Shown here: positions 1,689-28,904 of the stretch, one piece after another
Numbering within the stretch: position 1 is the first letter of the stretch
Layout: every line of letters begins with the position of its first letter
Assembly: GCA_000934665.2 (NCBI GenBank)
Contig: KZ538076.1
Span: 62,001-126,000 of the forward strand
Reading direction: 5' to 3'
Origin: Catajapyx aquilonaris
Taxonomy: Eukaryota
DNA: 64,000 bases
Notes under the pieces: generated by a model
The model's database searches: none
The model's input: the letters and a program-made list of their open reading frames with translations, nothing else
What the model was told of the DNA's origin: nothing
Program-made: the position numbers and the translations under genes

Positions 1689-4334
1689 GAGCACCTTGAC
1701 CGAGGTCATCTGGAAAGCGACCTACCCTGCGATAGTTCCTCGGGCAGTCCTCCCCACGAACCATACCGTGCCAGTGCACCCCCAGCTCAAGTTGGACACC
1801 ATCCTAGCTTTATTCCTCCTGGCAGAAGCATCAGCATTCCGGACATTCACGTGAGCATACACAACCCTGTCGTGATGAGACGAAGTGTGTCGTCTCAAGG
1901 GGAGCTGCACAGCCCATCCACAGAGAAGAACACGCTACAAGTGTCCGTTGCGTACACTATGGCAGCAGCAGAGGCCATAAGCTCAAAGAAAAGCTCCAGC
2001 CCACTCCTACGGAGAAGCAGCAAGTCTGATGAGTCCTTCCATGTGTATGAGGAGTTTCACTACGGACAATTCGGGCAATCAGCTGATGAGTCCCCGGACT
2101 ACTCGGAGCACGAATCTAGAAATGGTGTTGAGGTGGTTGGAAGTGTTGCTACCAAGGATTCTCATTCTCAGGTGCTACAAGAATCTTTATACGAGACGGT
2201 CAAGTTCGGCAACAATGTGGACTGCCTGAATGAAAATGTGTATGAGGAGTTTGAAGGCTTTTCTGACCCGGGTTCGGGACCTACAGTGTCTTATCGAATC
2301 AAGAAGAGTTTGGCGAGACATTTTCCTACTCTGACACGGTCTCCCAGCAAGATACCAAAAGAGCCCTCTCGTACGAAGGCAAAACCCAAAAAGGTGAAAG
2401 AGGCACCTACATTTCCAGACTGCAAGAGAGGAAAGAGCTTCTTCCATAAGCTCTTCCACTTCAAGAAGGATGGCAGCAAGAGAGCCAGAAAGGAAAGAGA
2501 TGCTGATCATGAATATGAGACCATGTACGAGCCAGTTGACTACGATTCGCTCTATGAGATGCAGAGTAACCATGTGATATATCAGACTGCGCAAAAGACT
2601 GACCAATCAACAAGCACTAGTCTCACAAGTGTCCAAAACCAGGATGGTAGTACGTTGCTTGAGAAATCTACCCAGGTGGACATTGAAAGCCTGCAGGAGC
2701 CAACCCCACAACCCGAAGAAAAGCCCTTGGCAGGTTCGCTGCTCATCCTGAAAAAGGAACTTATGAATGAACTCAAATTGAAAATGGAAGAGAAAAGAAA
2801 AAGCCTGGCATCAAATGTAGACGAGACTGACAATTCTGCGCTTGCAGGAATAGAAAACCAGACAAAATCGACACCAAGAGGCAGCCGGAATTTGCAAGTG
2901 CTGTACCCGAAGGAAATGTTGTACACTGGAGAATCCACTGCAACACAAGAACCTTCTTCAAGCCACTCTCCTTTTCAAGATACCTGCGACTACAGCATCT
3001 ACTTTCCCATGGCTTTTCAGACCCCTGACCACACACCACCATTGCCTCCCAAAACCAGAGCTAGACCATTATCTCCAACTCATGATGTCCCTCTAAACAA
3101 CACTCCAGTTGCTGGATACAGCCTCACTTTTCCTCAGGTTCTTCAAGATTCTAGGACAGTCAGACAATCATATAAGCAGCAATATTCATCCGACGATGAT
3201 AGTGTGAGTGACGAACTGCCAAGTATTGAAAACTCACATCCTGCTACAGAGAGTCTCCAGCAGCAATTTGAAGCTTCAGCATTTCCAGTCAGTGAAGAAT
3301 TAATAATTGTGGAACATGTTACAGGCAGCCCATTGACTACTGAAACGGAGATTGTAGAACAAGTCGAGGCTCTTGCCAGTAATAATGTGAATGTGATACC
3401 GAGTACCGAGAAATTGTTGTACGATGTTGAACAACAAGCTAAGACAACCTCCCCAAGCAGCATGTACATAAGACATCTCACAGAAGAAACTCATCCATGC
3501 AACAAATTTGAAGCTTCAGGTTCAGAATATCCAGAAAATGATGAAGTCTTTGACGCGGGCCGAATAGGAAATGATGAAAGCTTGGAGGAAGAATTCAGGC
3601 GTAAACCTTGTTCTCCACCGTCAACCCCACCTTCTTCCTCTGAACATCCAATAGCAACAGTCCTCTCTTCCAGTCCCGATGATAACCAAGACTCTGATCC
3701 AGATTACGATTTTCCCAGACCACACCTATCATCAGCCAACAATGGGTCCAACAGTCCCGACCTCAACGACCAACTAGACGCCATCATCGATTCAGAACGG
3801 ACATCCAGCGACTACGAGTGTGGTTCTGGAGACAGTTGGACTCCTAGGTGGAGCCAGAGGAACTCTCGTGATGGCACAGTGCTGGAACAATGCAGAGACG
3901 ATGAATCAGTGCTAGTTCAAGTTAGCTCCGTGTCTGACGAACCTGAAGAGGATAGTGTTATACTGCGGAATAAGGCTGAACCACGACCCTCACCTGAGTT
4001 ACGAGTGAGTTACGTCGCGACTGAAACTGTGATTGTAGAATCAGAAGAGGTCATGCCATTAGTGCCGGCTAATGGTTCAGGAAAGCCAAAGTTTCAAGTA
4101 GAGATGGACGACCAAACGTTGTTTGCAGGGGATTTTACACTCAAACGTCCAAGTCAGATCCCCACGCCGGAGGACCTGCGGTCTTCAGGAATTAGTCATC
4201 TACAAGAGTTTTTAAATCGCTTGGACGATGAAACGGGTACGGAGAGACAAGGTGCCGTCAGTAAATTAGGACACAGTGTTGCGGTGGCAAAACTTCGTGA
4301 ATTTTTTGAAAAGGAGGGTGGTCATTCGGGATGA
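1689..4334 (+). CDS. Large terminal exon of an uncharacterised, mostly disordered Ser/Glu/Pro-rich protein with many Tyr motifs (about 912 aa from ATG 1530)
   Basis: The 827-aa ORF stays open upstream to the ttttttAG acceptor at 1688. Stop is TGA at 4332-4334, with AATAAA at 4694. I recognise no folded domain. Confidence 0.85.
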   Translation, partial: EHLDRGHLESDLPCDSSSGSPPHEPYRASAPPAQVGHHPSFIPPGRSISIPDIHVSIHNPVVMRRSVSSQGELHSPSTEKNTLQVSVAYTMAAAEAISSKKSSSPLLRRSSKSDESFHVYEEFHYGQFGQSADESPDYSEHESRNGVEVVGSVATKDSHSQVLQESLYETVKFGNNVDCLNENVYEEFEGFSDPGSGPTVSYRIKKSLARHFPTLTRSPSKIPKEPSRTKAKPKKVKEAPTFPDCKRGKSFFHKLFHFKKDGSKRARKERDADHEYETMYEPVDYDSLYEMQSNHVIYQTAQKTDQSTSTSLTSVQNQDGSTLLEKSTQVDIESLQEPTPQPEEKPLAGSLLILKKELMNELKLKMEEKRKSLASNVDETDNSALAGIENQTKSTPRGSRNLQVLYPKEMLYTGESTATQEPSSSHSPFQDTCDYSIYFPMAFQTPDHTPPLPPKTRARPLSPTHDVPLNNTPVAGYSLTFPQVLQDSRTVRQSYKQQYSSDDDSVSDELPSIENSHPATESLQQQFEASAFPVSEELIIVEHVTGSPLTTETEIVEQVEALASNNVNVIPSTEKLLYDVEQQAKTTSPSSMYIRHLTEETHPCNKFEASGSEYPENDEVFDAGRIGNDESLEEEFRRKPCSPPSTPPSSSEHPIATVLSSSPDDNQDSDPDYDFPRPHLSSANNGSNSPDLNDQLDAIIDSERTSSDYECGSGDSWTPRWSQRNSRDGTVLEQCRDDESVLVQVSSVSDEPEEDSVILRNKAEPRPSPELRVSYVATETVIVESEEVMPLVPANGSGKPKFQVEMDDQTLFAGDFTLKRPSQIPTPEDLRSSGISHLQEFLNRLDDETGTERQGAVSKLGHSVAVAKLREFFEKEGGHSG

Positions 4335-10471: not shown

Positions 10472-11482
10472 TATTCCATGCCGCGAGGAAAGGGCAGTTA
10501 ACCACCTTGCATTGTGCAATTAGTGAAGGAAATTAATATCCAAGACTTTATATCTGAAGTTGAGGTCTATCCGCCTATCCCGATATTTGCGACGCATCCG
10601 TTGCTGAAAATACTGGGGGGAAAAAATCTTTCATCTTCTTCCCTCAGACCTTGGAATAGTATATAGTCGAGTTCTTTCGACGACCTTTCCAGGCAAGGAT
10701 GAACATGAATTTTCCTGTTTTGCCTGCACTCTTTATTCCTTGTCAATAGAAGGAGTAGCAATAACAATAATGCATTTAAAGCAACTGGTTGCCATACTGA
10801 ATCTGGCCCACCTGCTGTGGCGAGCGTCTGCCCCAGTGCAGTGGCCGACTTGAGCGCTTGCAGTGCCGGAAGCCAGCGACTGCAGTAGGCTGTGGCGCGC
10901 GACTGAAGTGGCCACGTGTGAACCGGCCCTAAGCAGGCAAAAATTGGGTTTCACTTTAACATTGGGAACAACTCAACTAAAATTATCATGATTGGAGTCG
11001 ACAACAATCTCAGTAGAAATCCATTCCTTACAATGCAGTAATAGAAATTAACAACAACCAAGCCAGTCTCGGCAAAGAAGTGTCCCACTCACCATCTCCA
11101 TTCTGCTGCTCACATTCTAGTGGACTGTTGCAAGCTACTATAATTTTTCAGATACCTCTGGTAGATCTTTTTCATGTGAAGGGATTAATAAGGATTTTTT
11201 CCCCATATAAATGTGTAAATCGCCACTTCCACAGCCATTTTGCTTTCACCCCACTGTGAAGCCACCCAGCTCCCAAATATTGCAGACCTGATTTTTATTT
11301 TGGATAGTAAGAGGACTATTGCACCCTGCCAGGAAGGTCAAGGTCAATGAAATATCTTCACTCCATAAGAAGGGTTACACCAACAGGGATTTTGCACTTG
11401 GCTATAAAAGTTAAGTCTTGCTTGTTTTCTCTTGGTGACTGATCTTGACTTTTCAACATTTGATGATTATACTATTGGCACT

Positions 11483-11715
11483 GAAATGGTTCAGACACTT
11501 AGGGGTAGGCTGAGGGTTATGGCGGCTGCCATCGAGGGCACTAGGCGACGCTTGTGCAAGGCTGAGATTTGTCACGTTTTGAGGGAATAGTGTCCTGATC
11601 ATAGACACTTTACTCTCAAAAAGCGATAAATCTCAGACTTGCACAAGCGTCGCCTAGTGCACTCGATGGCGACTGGCATAACCCTCAGCCTTCCCCTCGG
11701 TGCCAGAACCATTTC
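11483..11715. mobile_element. Palindromic foldback MITE
   Basis: GAAATGGTTC...GAACCATTTC; arms of about 110 bp (e.g. GCACTAGGCGACGCTTGTGCAAG / CTTGCACAAGCGTCGCCTAGTGC) with a very short spacer. Confidence 0.75.
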
Positions 11716-11871
11716 CATGCTGAGAGTACTTTCCGCATGCCATGCTTCTGCAGAAGTAGCATATGAAACCAAGGAATTGCAGTCATGCCTTTACTCCAAG
11801 ACTGACGACTTCCTGACAGGCACACAGGACTTGATCCTTATGGTGAGGAATTTTGCAAAATATGTCACTTA

Positions 11872-11996
11872 GGGCCGGTTTCACCGAGCTCAGTATATGA
11901 TAAAACCAGGGTATTTCTCAAAATCCCTATCTATTTGTATGGATTTTCCTAAAGAAACCTGGTTTTATCATATACCAAGCTCGGTGAAACCGGCCC
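11872..11996. mobile_element. PIF/Harbinger (Tourist-like) MITE
   Basis: TTA|GGGCCGGTTTCACCGAGC...GCTCGGTGAAACCGGCCC|TTA, with a 3-bp TTA TSD. Confidence 0.8.
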
Positions 11997-12215
11997 TTAG
12001 AAAGGATTCATCTTGTGTTAGTGAATATGTTGGGTCGTTGAGTGCAATCAACAAGCAACATGATCCTATGTGGGGTTACAGTCCAAGAATTCAGAACAGT
12101 CACTGTTACATCACTTGGCCCCGAGTTAACTGGATGTGCTGTGTAAAAGAAGCAATGGCAGACCTTCTAAAAGGTGGAAGGTAATTCCGATTAAGATAAA
12201 AAGTACTAAACCTAA

Positions 12216-12310
12216 GGGCACAATTCTGAGATGCGAAACTTTCAAAATTCAGTCACAACCTGTCAAGCCCTGAAATCACTCAATTCGAGATGACTCAAAA
12301 TTTCGTGCCC
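12216..12310. mobile_element. Small Harbinger-like MITE
   Basis: TAA|GGGCACAATT...AATTTCGTGCCC|TTA. Confidence 0.5.
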
Positions 12311-12327
12311 TTACTTCTTACAGCAAA

Positions 12328-14512
12328 GGACATGGGTTAACTCAGTCAGTATGTAAAAGTTGCGCCGTTGGATTTTGCTCAAACTTGGTCAGTTGATAAA
12401 GCTTGACCCCAGGGTCAATTTCTCTGAAGGACGAAGACAATCTACTGGGCCGTTTGGCTGCTAGAGGCGCTCAAAGTTCGATTTTCAATGTTGTCCAATC
12501 TTGGTGAAATTGACACACAATGTAGAGTGTGATGAGCTGAGTCAAATGCACTATGGGACAATTTTCTCTGACAAACCCTTTGGTCGTTATAGTTAGTTGC
12601 AGAGCTGCATAGCTTTACAGCAATATAAGTTGATCTACAATAGCCTCGACGTAAAAGTGTATCGCATCAGGCTACATGAAAAATAATGGTCCTTATTGGG
12701 TACCCTGATAGTCAATGAATACATACACATGAACCATGGAGCCCAACATATTTTACTGCAAGTCACACAGTGCTCAATTATTCAAAAATACATGGCAGGT
12801 CCAGAAAAATTACATAATGACATATAAATGAAATGATGAAAAGATGAGATACTGAAAGGGACTTGCCATTCAGCTTAGTGAAGGTGCTCCTCTGCCACTT
12901 CATCTGGCTCGAATTCCACTCCGACTAGTCCACTTTGCTCGACTTTAATGTCATTGGTTTCCTCAACCTGCGGCACTTCACTGACCACTTCTGGTAGTTC
13001 ACGATTGGCTGCATCTCTCATCACTTGGAGCAATCTGGACGATGGAGTTGGAATCTTCAATTGATGTCTGGCGTGGCCCAGGTACCACAATACGCTGGCT
13101 ACATGTGTGCAGCATCCCAACGTCCTCGCACCAGATTTGCACTGGCAGTACCAGCCGTGGACTAACTCTTTGTCATCATCATCCGGGTCAGAATCCTCTT
13201 GCTCGACATAGGCAATCCACGTTGTACTTGGTGGAATTTCTATATAGAACTGCCTGTGCCATTTTCAATGCTTATTGTCCCTCGTCTATTCAAGTGACTG
13301 GTGCCAATGAAGAATTAGGCCACAGGATGCTTGAGATTGCACAATCTCCTAATGTTGTCCAGCAGAGAGTTTTGACAAAGGGATGGACCTCAAAGACACG
13401 AGAATGGAAGATGATGGAGGATGATGGAGGAAGATGAGAGTTGGAGGTTCCCTGTTTTAACGGAAGAGTATCTGCATGATTTCACAATAGGAATTTACCA
13501 ATTGAAGCTAGTCAAGTCATATGTTCATGACAAAATGCACTATGAGATACAAATTCTTAAGGAGCCAGGACTTCTCAAAGCAAGAATATATTCTCGCTAT
13601 AGAAATTCCACCAAGTACAACTTGTGGATTGCCTATGTCGAGCAAGAGGATTCTGACCTGGAAGACGATGACAAGTTAGTCCACGGCTGGTACTGCCAGT
13701 GCAAATCTGGTGTTGCGATGCTGCGCACATGTAGCCAGCGTATTGTGGTACCTGGGCCACGCCAGACATCAATTGAAGATTCCAACTCCATCGTCCAGAT
13801 TGCTCCAAGTGATGAGAGATGCAGCCAATCGTGAACTACCAGAAGTGGTCATTGAAGTGCCGCAGGTTGAGGAAACCAATGACATTGAAGTCGAGCAAAG
13901 TGGACTAGTCGGAGTGGAATTCGAGCCAGATGAAGTGGCAGAGGAGCATCTTTACTAAGCTGAATGGCAAAGCCCCTTTCAGTATCTCATCTTTTCATCA
14001 TTTCATTTTTATTTCATGTAATTTTTCTGGACCTGCCATGTATTTTTGAATAATTGAACACTGTGATTGCAGTAAAATATGTTGGGCTCCATGGTTCATG
14101 TGTATGTATTCATTGACTATCAGGGTACCCAATAAGGACCATTATTTTTCATGTAGCCTGATGCGATACACTTTTACGTCGAGGCTATTGTAGATCAATT
14201 TATATTGCTGTAAACCTATACACTGTAGTACAGCTCTGCAACTATTGTAACTATTAACGACCAAATGGTTTGTCAGAGAAAATTGTCCCATAGCGCATTT
14301 GACTCAGCTCATTGAACTCTACAATGTGTGTCAATTTCACCAAGATTGGACAACATTGAAAATCGAACTTGGAGAGCATCTAGTGGCTAAACGGCCCAGT
14401 AGATTCTCTTCGTCCTCTCGAGAAATTGACCCTAGGGTCAAGCTTTATCAACTGACCAAGTTTGAGCAAAATCCAATGGCGTAACTTTTACATAAGGAGT
14501 TAATCCATGTCC
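12328..14512. mobile_element. 2.2-kb foldback DNA transposon derivative with ~915-bp inverted arms and no TSD
   Basis: AAA|GGACATGG...CCATGTCC|TTT. Arms 12328-13244 and 13598-14512 are near-identical reverse complements around a 353-bp unique spacer. Confidence 0.9.
13245..13958 (+). pseudogene. Frameshifted C-terminal remnant of a SWIM-zinc-finger protein, probably the element's transposase
   Basis: Joined frames read RTACAIFNAY...FPVLTEEYLHDFTIGIYQLKL...SRYRNSTKYNLWIAY...HGWYCQCKSG(ARTLG)CCxHVASVLWYLG, giving a CxC...CxH SWIM pattern. It is disrupted by a short duplication near 13420 and an ~8-nt deletion near 13710; the deleted bases survive in the left arm. Confidence 0.7.
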
Positions 14513-14693
14513 TTTGGTACAGCAGTAATCCAAGGTGCCTCCTTTGAGTACTAGAGGGTGTCAAAGGCAGGGGTGAAGTGGTTAAGTACAGGCAACTTTC
14601 ACACCTTGTTTTGCACCCTGCCGCTGTCCATGTCTCTTATCACCTGATTGTTTTCCAGACTTGGCCACATACCTCCCAATCAAAATTGTCTTA

Positions 14694-14978
14694 AACCCAG
14701 TCCACATGAGCAAGTTTTCTTGTACACGATTCCTCCGGAGTTTCCCTCCCTTCCTCCCAACTCCCAACCCCAGACCAAGTGGGACGCAATTGAACGATTG
14801 GTGGTCACATGATGATTCACTCGTACAATTCCATGAGAAAAGTCGGACAAGTTTAACTTTTCTCGTGGACTCAGGCCAATCGTGTCCCATTTGGTCTGGG
14901 TGTTGGGAGTTGGGAGGAAGGGGTGGGGAAACTTGGGAGGCCTCGTGCATGAGAAAACTCGCTCATGTGGACTGGGCT
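14694..14978. mobile_element. Harbinger-like foldback MITE, possibly nested in a degenerate TA-flanked element (about 14554-15023)
   Basis: TTA|AACCCAGTCCACATGAGC...GCTCATGTGGACTGGGCT|TTA, with long imperfect inverted arms. Confidence 0.7.
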
Positions 14979-15439
14979 TTAGGCTCACCACCAAGTTTGG
15001 CAGGAAAATTCATGAGCACCCTGTACAGTGTACATAAGTGTCATCAGGTAATTGTTACATCTCAGATGTTTTAAATTAATTGATTCTAAGGCATTCATAT
15101 TTTTGGGGGAGTCTGTGTTTTTGGCAGTGATGCATAGTAAATATTTTGTCCCAATTTGTTCACCACTGTTAACATTCTCTTACGTGGATAAGGATATGAG
15201 TTAAAATAAAATATGCCTTTCATGCAGTGGGTTCTCAAATATACAAAGTTTAATTTCCTAAAATTGTGCATCTTGAACCTTTATCATCATAATGATAATT
15301 ATGGAACTTTTTGGCCAATGGTATACTCTAATGGTGGTGCAGCTTTGACACCACATGTAGCTCATCTTCAACTCGTCCTGTGTGCTCAATGTCAGCAACA
15401 AAGCTATTACAGTAAAACCTCTCGAGAGTGGACCCTGTA

Positions 15440-16051
15440 CTATCGGGTTCAAATACTTTTGGCCGCTTTATCCTAGTCTTGAAGCAACCCTTCACACACA
15501 CCTCCTTAAAGGGAGACTCCACTCAAAATGCAAGTTTGGGCTCTAAAAATCGGGCAAAAAATCCTGATTCCGAAGGTGCAATCGGTTTTTTTCTACGTGG
15601 AACAGAAAAGCCAGGACGAGGGGTTAAAGACTCAGAATTTGCGTCGTCTGCTAATGAGCTGCCCCGCCAGCCCAGTCCGCCACCACCATGAGCGCCGCCA
15701 CCGGGCACTAGGCGAAAGTGATTTAGTGCTGAAAGTCGGGTCGGGTCAAGAGGTGGCGGGATGAACCTGTGGGACGGACCAAAGATGGCGCAAGAATATC
15801 CCAATTTCTGCCAATCCCGGGGGAAGCGCTGCTGTTTTGCGGCAGATTCGAATTGCCTAACTTTGACGGCTCGCCCTGGCCTTACCGTTCGTCTCTCAGA
15901 AAAACTGCTTATACACTCGGAATCAGGATTTTTTGCCCGATTTTTAGAGCCCAACTTGCATTTTGAGTGGAGTGTCCCTTTAACGTGGGGTCTGCGCGAA
16001 GGGTTGCTTCAAGACCAGGATAAAGTGGCCAAAAGTATTTGAACCCGATAG
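15440..16051. mobile_element. TA-flanked palindromic MITE hosting a nested insertion
   Basis: TA|CTATCGGGTTCAAATACTTTTGGCC...GGCCAAAAGTATTTGAACCCGATAG|TA, with arms of about 60 bp. Confidence 0.8.
15510..15979. mobile_element. Kolobok-like MITE (TTAA TSD, AGG...CCT termini), copy 1
   Basis: TTAA|AGGGAGACTCCACTCAAAATGCAAG...CTTGCATTTTGAGTGGAGTGTCCCT|TTAA. The same family occurs at 31108-31609. Confidence 0.85.
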
Positions 16052-16058
16052 TACATAT

Positions 16059-16315
16059 GAAGAGCGGCAAAGCAAAACCCGCAAGATCCAATGTTGGCGG
16101 GAAACGATTTAGGCATGGCATATTGTCCGTCACATAGGCTGTGATCCGGTGTTAAAAGCTGGTCGGGCAAAATGTGTTAGTTCCATAGTATATGAGCCCA
16201 AAAACGGTCGATTCCAGCAAATACCGCAAGATCCAGCAGCATAGTGCAAGCAAAACCAGCAAGATCTACAGAAAAGTTTGCGATGGATCTTGCGGGTTTT
16301 GCTTTGCCGCTCCTC
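16059..16315. mobile_element. Sola-like MITE (4-bp ATAT TSD, GAG-type termini)
   Basis: ATAT|GAAGAGCGGCAAAGCAAAACCCGCAAGATCC...GGATCTTGCGGGTTTTGCTTTGCCGCTCCTC|ATAT, with internal CAAGATC repeats. Confidence 0.7.
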
Positions 16316-18118
16316 ATATGAGAAACTTGCCTACTGTGGAAAAGTTGTGTGGGGTCCCAGTAATGAATGTGTCACTGGATGTGGCCAACAAGCATAACTT
16401 CACTACTATTCAAATCACCTTGTTCATACAGTACAGTGGTGGAAAAAACTGCTTTGTACCCCAGTCAGCAGTGCCAAGCGGCCAGGCAAGTGGGTGGACG
16501 TGAAAGCTTGTATGAATAAACTTGCACTTGCACATGCTTCCATCCACACCCACATGTGTGATGCTTGCCGGGGTATACCACGCAGTTTTTGCCACTAGTG
16601 CACCTGAATCCTCGACCACATCCTGACCCTGTATACCAATTCCGTTCTGCCTCTTCCTCCTATGTGCTTGTCTTCCCTGATGGTCTTCCCCAAAGTAAAT
16701 GGACCTTGAAATGTTGGTGGAGCAAAATGAAGGCCAAAGTTTTTTTTTCGGCATGTAATGGGCTCATTTTAATCATCGAGGGCCATAAAGATCCAAATAA
16801 CATTAACACTTCCTTTTTTAGCAGTTTGACAATATGCTCAATCTTCCAAAATAAAAGCACAGTCCTTTTTGAAAGGAAGTGTGAGAAGATGTGGAACACC
16901 TTAGTTCACTGGTTTCTCAAGTCCTGACTGCCAACTGCAAAAATATTTCACATAAAAATCTTGAAATAGGGCTAACTTCAAGTTTCCACTTCTTCTCACA
17001 AAAGTCATACATAAAGTTATATCATACATCACACTTTCGGAGAGCCACTTTGTACTGAAACAATTTCCATTCATGAAATCCCTTCTAAGAGGAAGCCAGG
17101 GTGCAACTGAGAGAAGTGCCGTCACAAAAAGAATGGTAAAGATGAGTCTCGTTCAAAGCTGCACTTAGGTTAAGACTGTTGGCCTGCCACTTCACAAATT
17201 AAAAACTTAGGAAATCAAGTGAAAACATGAAACGGGTCAGGGCCATTAGTTCCAAATACTCACGCTACTGCTTTTACACACCTCTCCCCTTGACCAGCAC
17301 TCTCCAAGTCACAAAGTGTCTGGCTGCCCTCAAGTCTGCTAAGAACCCAACAATCACCGACATTGCAAAACAATAATTACTGCTTATCCTAGACAGAAAA
17401 CTTTTTTACAACACTAATTACTCTTTACAAAAGTGAAAACTAAGTCGAAACTTTGCATGGCAACATGTTCAGATACTGCAGTAATGCAGAGGTGCACTAC
17501 TCTTTTAAAAAAATGGGTTAAGCGTTCCACTTTCGGCTATCCCACCTGACGAATGGCTCATCAGACTTCAGCTCGAAAGCAGCGTAACTCTTTCCTCTGA
17601 CTTTTGCTCCCCCCCTCTCCCCCCCCTCCCTCCTTAGTGACAATGGCAACTGCAATTTCCATATATTTCAACATTTGGAATCACGCCTCTTCAGTTGGGA
17701 ACATAAAAATGGATGCAGTCTTTTCTGTCAGCCTACCACCTGCAGGCATCTAAGGTGCATTAGTTTCCTCTCGATGCAGTAGTGGTCTGTTGTAAAATGC
17801 CACCGTGTCGAAAAGATAGGAAGAAGCAACAACCTTTTTGGACACTAGCAATTTCACCACAGAACAGAACTGCTTCAGTGGGGTCCACTCTCCATAGAAC
17901 ACTTTCGATCCAAATTATTTCAATATTACAGCACCCTGCTGCTGTTTTCATGAAACCCTTTGAATAATATTAAGTGATAGCCTCCTGCACAGACAACTTT
18001 TGTGTTGTCAAAATAAATCTAAGGGGGACATGTGCTTCAAAATCAAATAAAAAATCATCATCAGTATGCACAACTTAATATTATCACTTGTGATTCTGGA
18101 AATGTTAGCCAAGAGGTA

Positions 18119-18217
18119 TCAGTTCAGGTCTCGATCTTCTAAGTAACGGTACTCAAAGGTAAAGCCATCCTTCTTCCTCTGGCCCCATTTCTCGAAATCA
18201 AAGAAAATGTATGTCCC
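18119..18217 (-). CDS. CNOT3: CNOT3/Not3 coding exon 13 (last), end of the NOT box
   Basis: [32 protein letters not shown]; tttgcAG acceptor; canonical NOT2/3/5-domain C-terminus. Confidence 0.97.
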
Positions 18218-18283
18218 CTGCAAAGGCAACATGGGTGCATTTAGAATCAACTCGACTTTACTCATCAGCAATGATCCACCTAC

Positions 18284-18493
18284 CTGCTCAAAATCCTCAT
18301 TTATGATCTTGGGTTCTTCATGCCTTTGGAACCACATCATGTATTTAGTATGAAACCTCCAACTCTGCTTCTTTAAGGCTCTTGCAGCCAGATACTGAGC
18401 TTTTGTTCCTTCCATGTAATAAAAAATAAAAAATAGTGTTTCCGTCGATAATCTCTGGAAGAATTCCACCGTGTCTGAGTGAGGTGGAGGTAC
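18284..18493 (-). CDS. CNOT3: CNOT3 coding exon 12, NOT box
   Basis: [70 protein letters not shown]; tttcAG acceptor and GTaggt donor. Confidence 0.97.
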
Positions 18494-21400
18494 CTGAAAT
18501 GGTTCATTCACAGGTATTAGTACAAGTACCACTGCAGGTCTTTATCTGTCACGACTTAAATAACAAATATGGCATGTGTTACTTTATAACTAGTCTTACA
18601 AAGATTCTCAAAACCTACTAGTGCAATATTTTATGTAGAGCTACTTATAACTAGGAGTTTCTTGCATTTGCTGCAAAAACAAATCACATTCTATCGTAAA
18701 TAAAAGGACTTTGCAAAGTAACTTCCAACGAGGCTACGACAGCAGCTTTCACAACAGTAGCTTTCACAACAGTGTGGGGTATGATTCGCAAATTGTGAAG
18801 TTACTGACACTGCAATTTACATATTTCCAAATGGTAATTTGCTAGTTTGTCCCTTCCTTTTATTCACGAAGGTAAATATACCCCAGTAATTGTAAAATCA
18901 GTTCTATCGAAAATGTCCAACAGAAGGACTTGCTTAGAAACTAGCCTTGACATCGCCTGAAAATAAGCATTACGAAAATGTTTGGCGAATGTGACAGGGT
19001 TCACCAACTTGCTCCTCTCTCTCTCTCGCTCTCTCAGGTGGCTCATGAAAACACAATCAGATTAAAAATTAACATGTTTGAGTTCATTTTGTTGTTTTGT
19101 GTCTCCTTATTCCACCTGGAACCTGCATCTGAAACAAGCTTTGCTTTAATATCAGTATTTTGTGTGAAACACAACACTAATTCCATAATTTAAATGTTCT
19201 CTTTTCTTGACCTTGCACTGGCATCATCAGAAGTGACTATGCTGAGGGGAGATGCTGCTCAAAACTTGATGTCCTGAAGATAAATTGTAATTCACACATA
19301 AAAACAGACTGATAAAACAAGAGCTCCTGAAGGATGGTGCTGAACTTGTGGCCCCAATGGCTTCACAGCTTGGGTTCAAATTTGTATTCCAGTATCCATG
19401 TCTATCCAAGGTATTCAAGCACTTACCCATGAAATCCTGGCTACTCCATTCGTCGATGCCAATTGACAGATGCCATACGTTGCCGTAACTTCATATTAAG
19501 CTGGGCACAGTGTACCACGGACAAAACTGTGGGCTTTCAGAGTGAAACTAGTGCCAACACTCAGCTATCTGATGTCTAAAACAGTGATACAATGCACACA
19601 CCCTTTCATCATGCTTTAAGCAAAGTACAAAGTGACAACATAAGTAATGTACATAGGGATGGAAGCAGGAAAAATTAACACCACTGAAGAAACCAACATA
19701 GGAGGATTTTCATGCATGGTGATTACAGTGACAAGTAACAGGGGAACAGAATGCTTCAACATGGAATATTGGCACCATCACTTGATTTCTTGCGCCAAAA
19801 TACTAATGTAATGTAATTACTAGAACAAAATGAGGGCTGGCACGGATTCCCCCCACCCCCCCCCCCCACCCCATGGAAACGAGGTAGCAAAGAAATGTGC
19901 CTGGTAAGAAATTGAGTGTCAACTGATAGTAATCACAGCAGAGAATGGATCTCTGTTTTTAATTTTGAACTCAATTCTTGGAGCTCATGGTACTGATTGC
20001 AACCTTATGAAGAAACTCAAAATCACATGATATACAGCCAGTATAACAATTTCTGAATTACCTATAACAGCAGCAACATAGAAAGTCAACAGCAGTCTAA
20101 CTTGGGACATGCCCTCTCAAGCAGCGAATTGGAATGAGTGCCAAATAAAGTGAAATTGTACACCTATCAATTGCAGAATACAGTAGCTACTTTGAATTTA
20201 CAAATGTCAATAAAAATCCATCAATTAATTACCATTGGTAGAAGTAAGAACAGACAATGTTAGTTCTTCTGGCACGATGAATGTATTTTTTCTTAGGGAC
20301 AGTTCCTAAAGAGGCAACCTTTTTTTAGGGGGGCTGGAGTAAATAGCTCTGGCCATCACAAGACATTGGAAAATCAACATGACAGAAGAAATTACACGAA
20401 CTTGGCCCTCCTTCCACCCGCCTTGCTCTGGGAAACTCAGTAGTACTGCCATGCATTGCAGGTCAAAAAATATATTTGAACTTCTGGGCAGTTCCGAGTT
20501 CCAGTTTCAAATTCAGACAATGCTATGTTGATTTTGTGATGTTATCTAATTTTCACTAAGCTTGCCCTTCAAGAAGGGTTGAAGCGAGAGGGCATTCACA
20601 CACAATCGGGTTATACTGCTGCAGACTATAACAACAAAAAAACATAACAATTATATAAAATAACAGCAACTATACCACTACTGATGATGNGGGAATTGTC
20701 CAGGTGTGGTGTATGAAAAATGAGCTTTCTGTTAAATTTTGGCACCTTCAGGAATACCAACTTGATGCAGGAGGGTCTGTGAACATTAAAACTGACACGG
20801 ATAAACACTTAAATAATTCTACTTGGGCAGACTTAAAAGTTGTCACCCAGTGTACCAGATACCAATTTGGAAATCATGTTGATTCCTTATGATGAAATGA
20901 AAAAGTCTGATTTTCTTGAAACCAGTTTCAGTCTGCAGATGATATCACACGAGAAAAAAAAGTCCTGTGACCATCTTCACCAGTCTTGTTTTGAAAGTTA
21001 TAAATAATTGAAAATTTGGAACTCTGGGTATGTGACAACAAAACTACCTTACCCTAATCTACCTAGCATTCCCAGTGTGAAAGTTGGGCCAGCCAAAGTG
21101 TACTTAGTTTGAGTCTTCATTAGTTTCGTTTAAAACCCACTCTTCTAGAACCTGGTAGTGGTGAAAATTCAATTCCGTCTCGATTTGTCTTGATAATTTT
21201 TTACAGGCAAGGGCTTACGAAGCCCAGGAGTATTTCAAAATACTCGTGGGCAGCTGCATGTTGCACACTGGGCATACCCTGGTGATGCCAGATCTGTGAC
21301 TGACATTACCATACATAGTGATTTGTTCCGGAAGTTTGTCTTCCAAGATGACTTCAGAGGAGATGCAATTGTTAATACAGCCCTGCTGCAGCAAAAAGAC

Positions 21401-28341: not shown

Positions 28342-28904
28342 GGACATGGCACTGGGGTTCTTTATGGAAAAGTTCAGGCAGATGGATTTGGATGAAACTT
28401 GGTCAGGTGATAAACCTTGACCTTAGGGTCAATTGTTCTGAAGGACGCAGAAAATCTACCATGCCGTTTGGCTGCGAGAGGCGCTCAAAGTAAGAATTTC
28501 AAGTGGTTCCTATCGGACTCATTTTCACAAATTTTGTTGAGTTTCCAGAGCCGAGTCAAATGAGCCATGTGGCAATTTTATATGACAAACCATTTGGCAG
28601 TTATTGTTGTCGCACCTATAATCCATATGAATTCGATTGTGCTTCTAGCGGTCAAAATATTTGTCACAGAAAATTGCCACATGGCTCATTCGACTCAGCT
28701 CATGAAACTCTAAAACATACGTAAAAATGAGCCTGATAGGAACCACTTGAAATTCCGACTTTGAGCACCTCTAGTGGTCAAACGGAGTAGTAGATTTTCT
28801 TCGTCCTTCAGAACAATTGACCCTAAGGCCAAGGTCTATCACCTGACCAAGTTTCATCCAAATCCATCTGGCTCAACTTTTCCCATAAGGACCCCACCAT
28901 GTCC
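28342..28904. mobile_element. Short foldback copy of the 12328-14512 family
   Basis: AAA|GGACATGG...CCATGTCC|TTT with arms of about 260 bp homologous to the large element's termini (AAACTTGGTCAG..GATAAA.CTTGACC..AGGGTCAATT..CTGAAGGACG). Confidence 0.85.

Follow-up and report, generated by a model that had tools for sequence, protein, structure and literature searches.

A 2.2-kb inverted repeat that carries mirrored transposase coding sequence lies at positions 12328-14512 of a 64,000-nucleotide stretch of the genome of Catajapyx aquilonaris (GenBank assembly GCA_000934665.2, contig KZ538076.1, positions 62,001 to 126,000 of the forward strand; the whole stretch is called the window below, and all positions refer to it). 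This element, here called the foldback, is a gene-less, decaying, non-autonomous transposon derivative and represents a known kind of transposon rearrangement. We regard it as probable that it derives from the Spy group, that it is inserted at AAA|TTT without a target-site duplication (TSD), and that it was formed by inverted duplication of the transposon's 3' end. As the mechanism of this duplication we lean towards a template switch, a view that rests on a step in arm-to-arm identity at the boundary of the terminal inverted repeat (TIR) and on a model described for another transposon superfamily (PMC3814204).

Architecture of the Foldback

The termini of the foldback were set by a motif scan for AAAGGACATGG, which delimits the element at 12328-14512. 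Its arms of 917 and 915 bp enclose a spacer of 353 bp (13245-13597), and this geometry, claimed in a preliminary description made from the DNA letters, turned out to be exact in the alignments and the motif scan. Between 12350-13220 and 13624-14494, a repeat search detected seven inverted pairs in collinear order; the longest three measure 267 nt (97% identity), 240 nt (92%), and 156 nt (98%). Gapped local alignment placed the arms at 12311-13244 and 13598-14528 (876 matches, 34 mismatches, 17 gaps), and global alignment of 12324-13244 with 13598-14515 gave 898 aligned columns with 36 mismatches and 12 indel events, corresponding to an arm-to-arm identity of 96% in aligned columns. The inverted repeat cannot have arisen by chance: folded as RNA in silico, it reaches -1664 to -1692 kcal/mol and forms 866-874 pairs between the arms, while five of five shuffles lie at -566 to -589 kcal/mol. 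The parts of the foldback, its flanks and a related miniature inverted-repeat transposable element (MITE) in the window are as follows (UTR, untranslated region; ORF, open reading frame).

12325..12327, no strand: AAA host half-site in the left flank (motif scan for AAAGGACATGG; the Spy target is AAA|TTT, PMC4122938)
12328..12594, + strand: left TIR, starting with GGACATGG, probably the native TIR of ~265 bp (92.8% identical to the right TIR)
12595..12874, - strand: inverted copy of the transposase 3' UTR (97.1% identical to 13959-14254, with 8 mismatches in 274 columns)
12875..13244, - strand: inverted copy of the last ~110 transposase codons with the SWIM-like finger and an acidic tail (ORF, phmmer, tblastn)
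13245..13597, + strand: spacer, the single-copy coding part upstream of the duplicated part (tblastn with the homologues P0002, P0003, and P0008)
13598..13958, + strand: right copy of the last ~110 transposase codons, with the finger broken by an 8-bp deletion at 13712 (ORFs, indels, tblastn)
13959..14254, + strand: right 3' UTR of ~296 bp (97.1% identical to 12595-12874)
14255..14512, - strand: right TIR of ~260 bp, ending with CCATGTCC (alignments, motif scan)
14513..14515, no strand: TTT host half-site in the right flank (motif scan, sequence)
28342..28904, no strand: related 563-bp palindromic MITE composed of TIR, 42 bp, and TIR, with AAA/TTT flanks, in an intron of CNOT3 (repeat search, motif scan)

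The right 1.27 kb of the foldback is an ordinary transposon 3' end, consisting of the last ~210 codons, the 3' UTR and the TIR. The left arm holds a second, shorter version of the same end in inverted orientation, in which the coding copy terminates at the breakpoint 13244/13245, so that a right 3'-derived segment of 1,268 bp faces a left arm of 917 bp. That two 3' ends of one transposon make up the element, as initially proposed, is thus borne out by the alignments and by the tblastn matches described below.

Coding Content and Lesions

The coding sequence in the left arm is read on the minus strand in an ORF of 129 aa (12875-13264), which contains WYCQCKSGARTLGCCTHVASVLWYLG and runs to a stop (in a longer excerpt, WIAYVEQEDSDPDDDDKELVHGWYCQCKSGARTLGCCTHVASVLWYLGHARHQ). 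The plus-strand copy in the right half starts with WYCQCKSG, is frameshifted by the 8-bp deletion at 13712 and continues as CCAHVASVLWYLG in ORF 13680-13958; the two plus-strand ORFs of this half are 13415-13834 and 13680-13958. The peptide of the finger region is therefore mirrored on both strands as originally noted, with one copy in a single ORF and the other split. With transposase homologues as queries, tblastn aligned 13246-13958 on the plus strand to the last ~210 residues of the transposase in three frames, and 13219-12899 on the minus strand to the last ~110 residues. Matches to P0002, P0003, and P0008 lie in frame +1 from 13240 to 13407 and in frame +2 from 13415 on; together they cover the whole spacer, which indeed extends the same protein upstream.

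Each arm was said to have private lesions, and the global alignment agrees. The left arm has lost 2 bp at 13221, which shifts the first residues, and the right half has deletions of 8 bp at 13712 and of 3 bp at 13674 in addition to a frame change at 13404-13436. This is also the position of a 10-bp tandem repeat (ATGGAGGATG, 3.3 copies), slippage in which is the likely cause of the spacer frameshift, because the repeat unit is not a multiple of three. No further piece of this transposase and no DDE region was found by tblastn with the homologues anywhere in the 64-kb window.

Transposase Family and the SWIM-Like Finger

A phmmer search with the left-arm ORF against 1.84 billion representative proteins returned 906 proteins at E ≤ 1e-3, including 93 at E ≤ 1e-10; the best homologue has E = 5.8e-24 and 53% identity. 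A word-based search for longer proteins with a 139-aa ORF gave 117 candidates, none of them at E ≤ 1e-3. Seventeen homologues, 13 of 569-779 aa and four shorter ones, were scanned with Pfam, and DDE_Tnp_4 scored above the Pfam cut-off in 15 of these, in agreement with the DDE_Tnp_4 parent that had been predicted. HTH_Tnp_4 reached 20-24 bits in seven of the 17, under the cut-off of 27 bits, and SWIM appeared below threshold in four.

A SWIM domain had also been expected, and this expectation holds for the CxCxnCxH signature and fails for the Pfam score: the peptide from the window scores 14.5 bits (E = 0.027) against SWIM (PF04434), under the gathering threshold of 19.6 bits, and homologues score 14.9-18.8 bits. 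Because the signature is there and the Pfam threshold is not reached, the C-terminal module is, by its sequence, named SWIM-like here and not classed as a member of PF04434. In the foldback protein the finger takes the form CxCx9CxH at the C-terminal side, and in the 13 long homologues it lies 42-61 residues from the C-terminus (103 residues in the 469-aa fragment P0005). Among the 150 best matches, 133 contain CxCx(6-14)CxH and 124 the stricter CxCxxGx[RK]xxGxCxH. An alignment of 61 sequences shows no variation at C40, C42, R47, C52, and H54 (numbering of the left-arm ORF), and the consensus of the module in the homologues (P0001-P0150 and the metagenome loci L009:3886-6210 and L012:1473-3473) is GWYCxCKxGARTxGCCAHVASVLWYLG. 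In an AlphaFold (AF2) model with a mean predicted local distance difference test (pLDDT) score of 70, two strands (15-19 and 35-40) and a long helix (45-67) surround the invariant residues. A match in the PDB was not obtained by profile sequence search (0 matches), Foldseek (best E 6.6), or VIA-align (best Z 3.2). The main texts of three publications on Spy and related transposons (PMC4122938; PMC4482050; PMC11304231) mention neither SWIM nor a zinc finger, and their supplements may show the domain. The foldback points to a conserved SWIM-like C-terminal module of Spy-type transposases.

Assignment to the Spy Group

Spy transposons insert at AAA|TTT without a TSD, begin with GGANNNNG, and have TIRs of 9-1,474 bp and a single-ORF transposase with the spacing D(79-80)D(44-62)E and a helix-turn-helix (HTH) at the N-terminus (PMC4122938); the TIRs of cgSpy measure 467 bp (PMC11304231). 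The window contains exactly four instances of the motif AAAGGACATGG, one at each end of the foldback and one at each end of the MITE at 28342-28904. All of them read AAA|GGACATGG, and this terminal octamer agrees with the Spy terminus GGANNNNG. The targets reported for ISL2EU (A|AT|T) and PIF/Harbinger (TWA) (PMC4482050) do not fit the AAA|TTT flanks, and an assignment to either was rejected.

With an alignment of 10 rows as the query, 38 loci encoding relatives were identified in metagenome contigs; termini were taken only from L009, where the TIRs could be paired, and from L012, where the contig starts beside a long TIR. L009 is a complete element, AAA|GGACCACG...CGTGGTCC|TTT, whose outermost 16 bases at the two ends match perfectly as an inverted repeat; it contains one ORF of 774 aa with DDE_Tnp_4 and the finger. 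L012 starts with AAA|GGACCAGG; its TIRs are 95% identical over at least 448 bp, the TIR being cut by the contig end, and it has one ORF of 666 aa with DDE_Tnp_4. AAA/TTT flanks are thus present at both ends of the foldback, of the MITE and of L009 and at the sole visible end of L012, and the flanks of the MITE and L009 are free of an adjacent duplication. The D-E spacing, determined by regular expression, is 45-49 in all ten relative proteins inspected. Counting AAAGGA....G on the upstream side and its complement on the downstream side in the 38 loci is uninformative, with 6 + 4 occurrences in the right orientation and 2 + 8 in the wrong one. Homologues with a named source come from one parasitoid wasp and one clam. 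From its termini, target and coding sequence, the family can be assigned with good confidence to the Spy group of the PHIS (PIF/Harbinger-ISL2EU-Spy) superfamily.

In another of the related loci, L010, the first 90 bases of the contig (1-90) recur in inverted orientation and with 100% identity past the transposase gene (4042-4131). Either the contig end has truncated a long TIR of very young age, or the match is an effect of assembly.

Contig Support and Copy Number

The contigs stem from four DNA runs, all made on a single sample; this may be the sample of the assembly itself, and the contigs are therefore not independent. Exactly matching contigs whose depth equals that of the single-copy flanks (~19-30) cover 11974-12383, 13191-13352, and 14447-15300 and thereby bridge three of the four junctions of the foldback, namely the left outer one, that between left arm and spacer, and the right outer one; the spacer is covered by a contig at 13347-13589. 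Among the contigs listed, no joint skips the whole foldback as an empty allele would, which is not evidence of absence. Relative to the flanks, the summed contig depth is 20-60 times higher across the TIR and 4-6 times higher across the coding part and the spacer, which roughly indicates numerous MITE-like copies and a few further copies containing the coding part.

In one further contig, present in all four runs at about single-copy depth, 13176 is followed by seven filler letters and then by 13250, so that the inverted arrangement is kept and 73 bp are lost across the junction. This seems to be a second copy of the foldback elsewhere in the genome, and the foldback would therefore have spread after it was formed. 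As it keeps both Spy termini, a transposase supplied in trans could move it.

Evidence for a Proposed Two-Step Origin

The divergence between the two arms is unevenly distributed. The outer 265 columns of the global alignment contain 19 mismatches (92.8% identity) and the inner 633 columns 17 (97.3%; Fisher p = 0.004), and just three of the 19 outer mismatches lie in a CpG context. A cluster of indels (1, 5, and 10 nt) at 12589-12606 marks the boundary between TIR and 3' UTR. Both arms of the MITE at 28342-28904 are 75-77% similar to the outer ~270 bp of the foldback arms, and this homology stops at ~12594. A further hint, and no more, comes from three distinct joints in contigs of the family that all resume at 14262, with sides of 21-38 letters. 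Because the identity step and the end of the MITE homology fall at the same boundary, the simplest reading is that the outer ~265 bp are a native long TIR and that the inner part is a later inverted duplication of the 3' end.

The best-fitting origin is the template switching that had been suggested at the outset, given the identity step at the TIR boundary and a model developed for the Goblin MITE and its source Ozma (PMC3814204); we hold it with somewhat more belief than doubt. The parent would have had TIRs of ~265 bp that were already a few per cent apart. Its excision would have left a gap, during the repair of which a strand that had copied the left TIR could have moved to the complementary right TIR and been extended through the 3' UTR and the coding tail. 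Joining of the two new ends would then have produced the repair junction at 13244/13245. The product would possess TIRs of 0.9 kb that contain coding sequence, and the inner 650 bp of its left arm would be the younger duplicate.

The MITE at 28342-28904 had been considered a possible end point of a path on which the foldback was an intermediate, and the comparison does not support this relation. Its arms (28353-28603 and 28646-28896, 42 nt apart) are just 75-77% like those of the foldback and are 84% complementary to each other, against 96% in the foldback. Judged by these figures, the MITE is older than the foldback and belongs to another subfamily, and a plain internal deletion of a parent with long TIRs explains its structure of TIR, 42 bp, and TIR.

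Several observations count against the interpretation as a Spy derivative that was formed by a later inverted duplication. No parent copy lies in the 64-kb window, and not one of the 38 metagenome loci with relatives bears the C-terminal coding part on the two strands at once, so the arrangement is no habit of the clade. The joints at 14262 rest on sides that are merely 21-38 letters long. Gene conversion with the many MITE copies could be the source of the additional divergence in the outer arms. When the site patterns of four arms are compared, 36 sites group the two foldback arms and 4 and 1 sites support the other groupings; old left- and right-specific variants of the TIR, which were considered, gave no sign of their presence, as 4 versus 1 sites are uninformative. 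The spacing between the first two aspartates is 80-83 in nine of the ten relative proteins and 61 in P0014 (regular expression), and the published spacing is 79-80. No bridge across 13597/13598 occurs among the contigs listed. Finally, if the ends were drawn at CAAAGG...CCTTTG, the foldback would have a 'TSD' matching at five of six positions. TACAGC is present on both sides (12318-12323 and 14518-14523), 3 and 5 bases off the termini. The corresponding 6-bp TSD (TTACAG/GTACAG, 5/6) was rejected because the MITE and L009 are without such a repeat; TACAGC, being non-adjacent and no standard target duplication, may be due to chance or be a feature of the target.

Alternative Origins

An alternative that we consider unlikely is that the parent natively had TIRs of ~0.9 kb, including the antisense C-terminus, and that the foldback is its internal deletion derivative, in which 13244 was joined to codon ~-210 (13245). 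TIRs of such length are within the range of 9-1,474 bp known for Spy (PMC4122938), and long ones occur in cgSpy (467 bp; PMC11304231) and in L012 (at least 448 bp). Against native TIRs of this kind speaks the step from 92.8 to 97.3% identity at ~12594 (p = 0.004), at which boundary the MITE arms and the joints in the family contigs end as well; in addition, the TIRs of both L009 and L012 stop short of the ORF.

Still less probable is an origin from two head-to-head insertions, or from alternative transposition, followed by deletion of the 5' parts and the intervening DNA. The outer AAA/TTT flanks would fit equally, an arm difference of 4% is possible between two copies of a family, and alternative transposition is described to yield inverted duplications of Ac/Ds (bioRxiv 10.1101/2020.01.07.897926). 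This course of events requires two insertions within a few kb in addition to a deletion and leaves the greater divergence of the TIR than of the UTR and coding sequence unexplained; moreover, the nearly identical inner junction of the second copy (13176/13250 compared to 13244/13245) suggests one founding event and subsequent spread.

Long palindromes are a known class of assembly artefact, and a chimeric or snap-back read could be suspected here since no listed contig spans the whole stretch, yet this is hardly credible in view of the 36 substitutions and 12 indels between the arms, where snap-back artefacts give perfect palindromes, and of the exact single-copy-depth contigs that bridge three junctions in four of four runs.

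Genomic Neighborhood and a Possible Silencing Role

The exon of CNOT3 that encodes NOT2_3_5_C was located at 18119-18541 on the minus strand (E = 1.9e-33), which places the foldback ~3.6 kb past the CNOT3 stop, as the preliminary description had it. In addition to the duplication of the 3' end, which is its preferred origin and with which this idea is compatible, the foldback might act as a trans-silencer comparable to maize Mu killer: read-through from CNOT3 would produce a hairpin with ~870 bp of double-stranded RNA, from which endogenous small interfering RNAs (endo-siRNAs) against the Spy family could be generated. We consider this function, proposed by analogy, to be a long shot. In its favor, the structure resembles Mu killer in that part of a transposase gene is duplicated in inverted orientation together with two TIR copies (PMC3440606), the minus-strand hairpin is predicted at -1664 kcal/mol with 866 arm-to-arm pairs, and the genome contains other copies of the coding part, as roughly indicated by a summed depth of 4-6 times single copy. 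Also in its favor, AATAAA is absent from the minus strand between the CNOT3 stop and the foldback (14529-18118), where only ATTAAA at 16768 and 15249 was detected; CNOT3 may have a long 3' UTR or use a variant polyadenylation signal. The foldback is decaying neutrally, with frameshifts and an arm divergence of 4%, and 3.6 kb is a long read-through, both of which speak against a silencing function. If the idea were true, the foldback would be an animal counterpart of Mu killer by which the remaining Spy copies are kept silent via the endo-siRNA pathway, and an accident of template switching would be a route to sequence-specific immunity of the host against a cut-and-paste family. A scan of 14400-18200 for bacterial promoters and terminators gave counts at the level of shuffled sequence and is irrelevant for an animal genome.

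The surroundings of the foldback contain several other repeats. To the right, inverted-repeat pairs (57 nt at 82%, 127 nt at 72%, and 66 nt at 76%) lie within 14690-14982 and 15495-15994; they are probably relics of MITEs between the foldback and CNOT3. To the left, a 126-bp palindromic Tourist/Harbinger-like MITE at 11872-11997 has the TIR GGGCCGGTTTCACCGAGC and a TTA target duplication (11869-11871 and 11998-12000); its family must be extremely abundant, as the summed contig depth is 60,000-107,000 compared to ~25 in the single-copy flanks. A near-perfect hairpin at 11470-11728 has 125-nt arms that are 82% complementary and 9 nt apart, and its depth is ~3-5 times that of single-copy sequence. 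Farther upstream, an uninterrupted ORF of 881 aa (1689-4334, plus strand) encodes a low-complexity protein rich in serine and glutamate without a Pfam family at E ≤ 0.01.

Comparison With Known Systems

Foldback elements of the classical FB type have arms of tandem sub-repeats that are unrelated to a transposase gene. The foldback does not belong to this class, since its arms consist of TIR, UTR, and coding sequence without notable tandem sub-repeats; the tandem-repeat search (TRF) found merely an 8-bp repeat of 2.5 copies in the arms and the 10-bp repeat of 3.3 copies in the spacer.

Mu killer of maize is an inverted duplication of part of mudrA with two copies of TIRA, for which a hairpin RNA formed by read-through from a neighbouring gene has been proposed (PMC3440606). 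It shares with the foldback the inverted duplication of one portion of a transposase gene, the presence of one TIR in two copies and a position downstream of a host gene. In Mu killer the 5' part of mudrA is the duplicated one, and genetic evidence shows that it silences MuDR by way of a hairpin RNA, whereas the foldback duplicates the 3' part and resides in an animal host (PMC3440606).

In the '2RT' elements of Galileo, a member of the P superfamily in Drosophila mojavensis, the TIRs of non-autonomous copies are lengthened by internal sequence (PMC3573991). Both systems have in common that TIRs grow by uptake of adjoining internal sequence and that the longest TIRs belong to non-autonomous copies; they differ in the sequence taken up, which is spacer (F1/F2) and tandem repeats in Galileo and 3' UTR and coding sequence in the foldback (PMC3573991).

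The Goblin MITE of Aedes aegypti originates from the Tc1/mariner transposon Ozma, and both of its subterminal sides stem from the right end and are of unequal length (PMC3814204). In the model put forward for it, the newly made left TIR invades the right TIR of the template during synthesis-dependent strand annealing (SDSA), which is followed by extension and end joining, and the authors suggest the same route for other MITEs with long TIRs and for hairpin MITEs (PMC3814204). Likewise, the two sides of the foldback junction both come from the 3' subterminal region, are inverted and differ in length. The foldback, in contrast to Goblin, is related to Spy and not to Tc1/mariner, is larger (2.2 kb), and includes ~110 mirrored codons (PMC3814204). 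The template-switch model of Goblin and Ozma would thereby be extended from Tc1/mariner to the PHIS superfamily.

The closest likeness is with Spy itself, which shares the insertion at AAA|TTT without a TSD, the terminal GGANNNNG, TIRs of highly variable and sometimes very great length and, among the relatives, a single-ORF transposase with DDE_Tnp_4 (PMC4122938; PMC4482050; PMC11304231). Spy has moreover been reported from a parasitoid wasp and a clam, the source taxa of two of the homologues (PMC4122938; PMC4482050; PMC11304231). The foldback differs from it in lacking the DDE region and in having coding sequence inside its TIRs, and its relatives differ slightly in the D-D spacing (80-83 compared to 79-80). 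The history of Spy is one of repeated expansion and contraction of TIRs by a mechanism described as unclear (PMC4122938), and the foldback looks like a snapshot of such an expansion, with a TIR of ~265 bp enlarged through inverted duplication by 650 bp that comprise 3' UTR and coding sequence.

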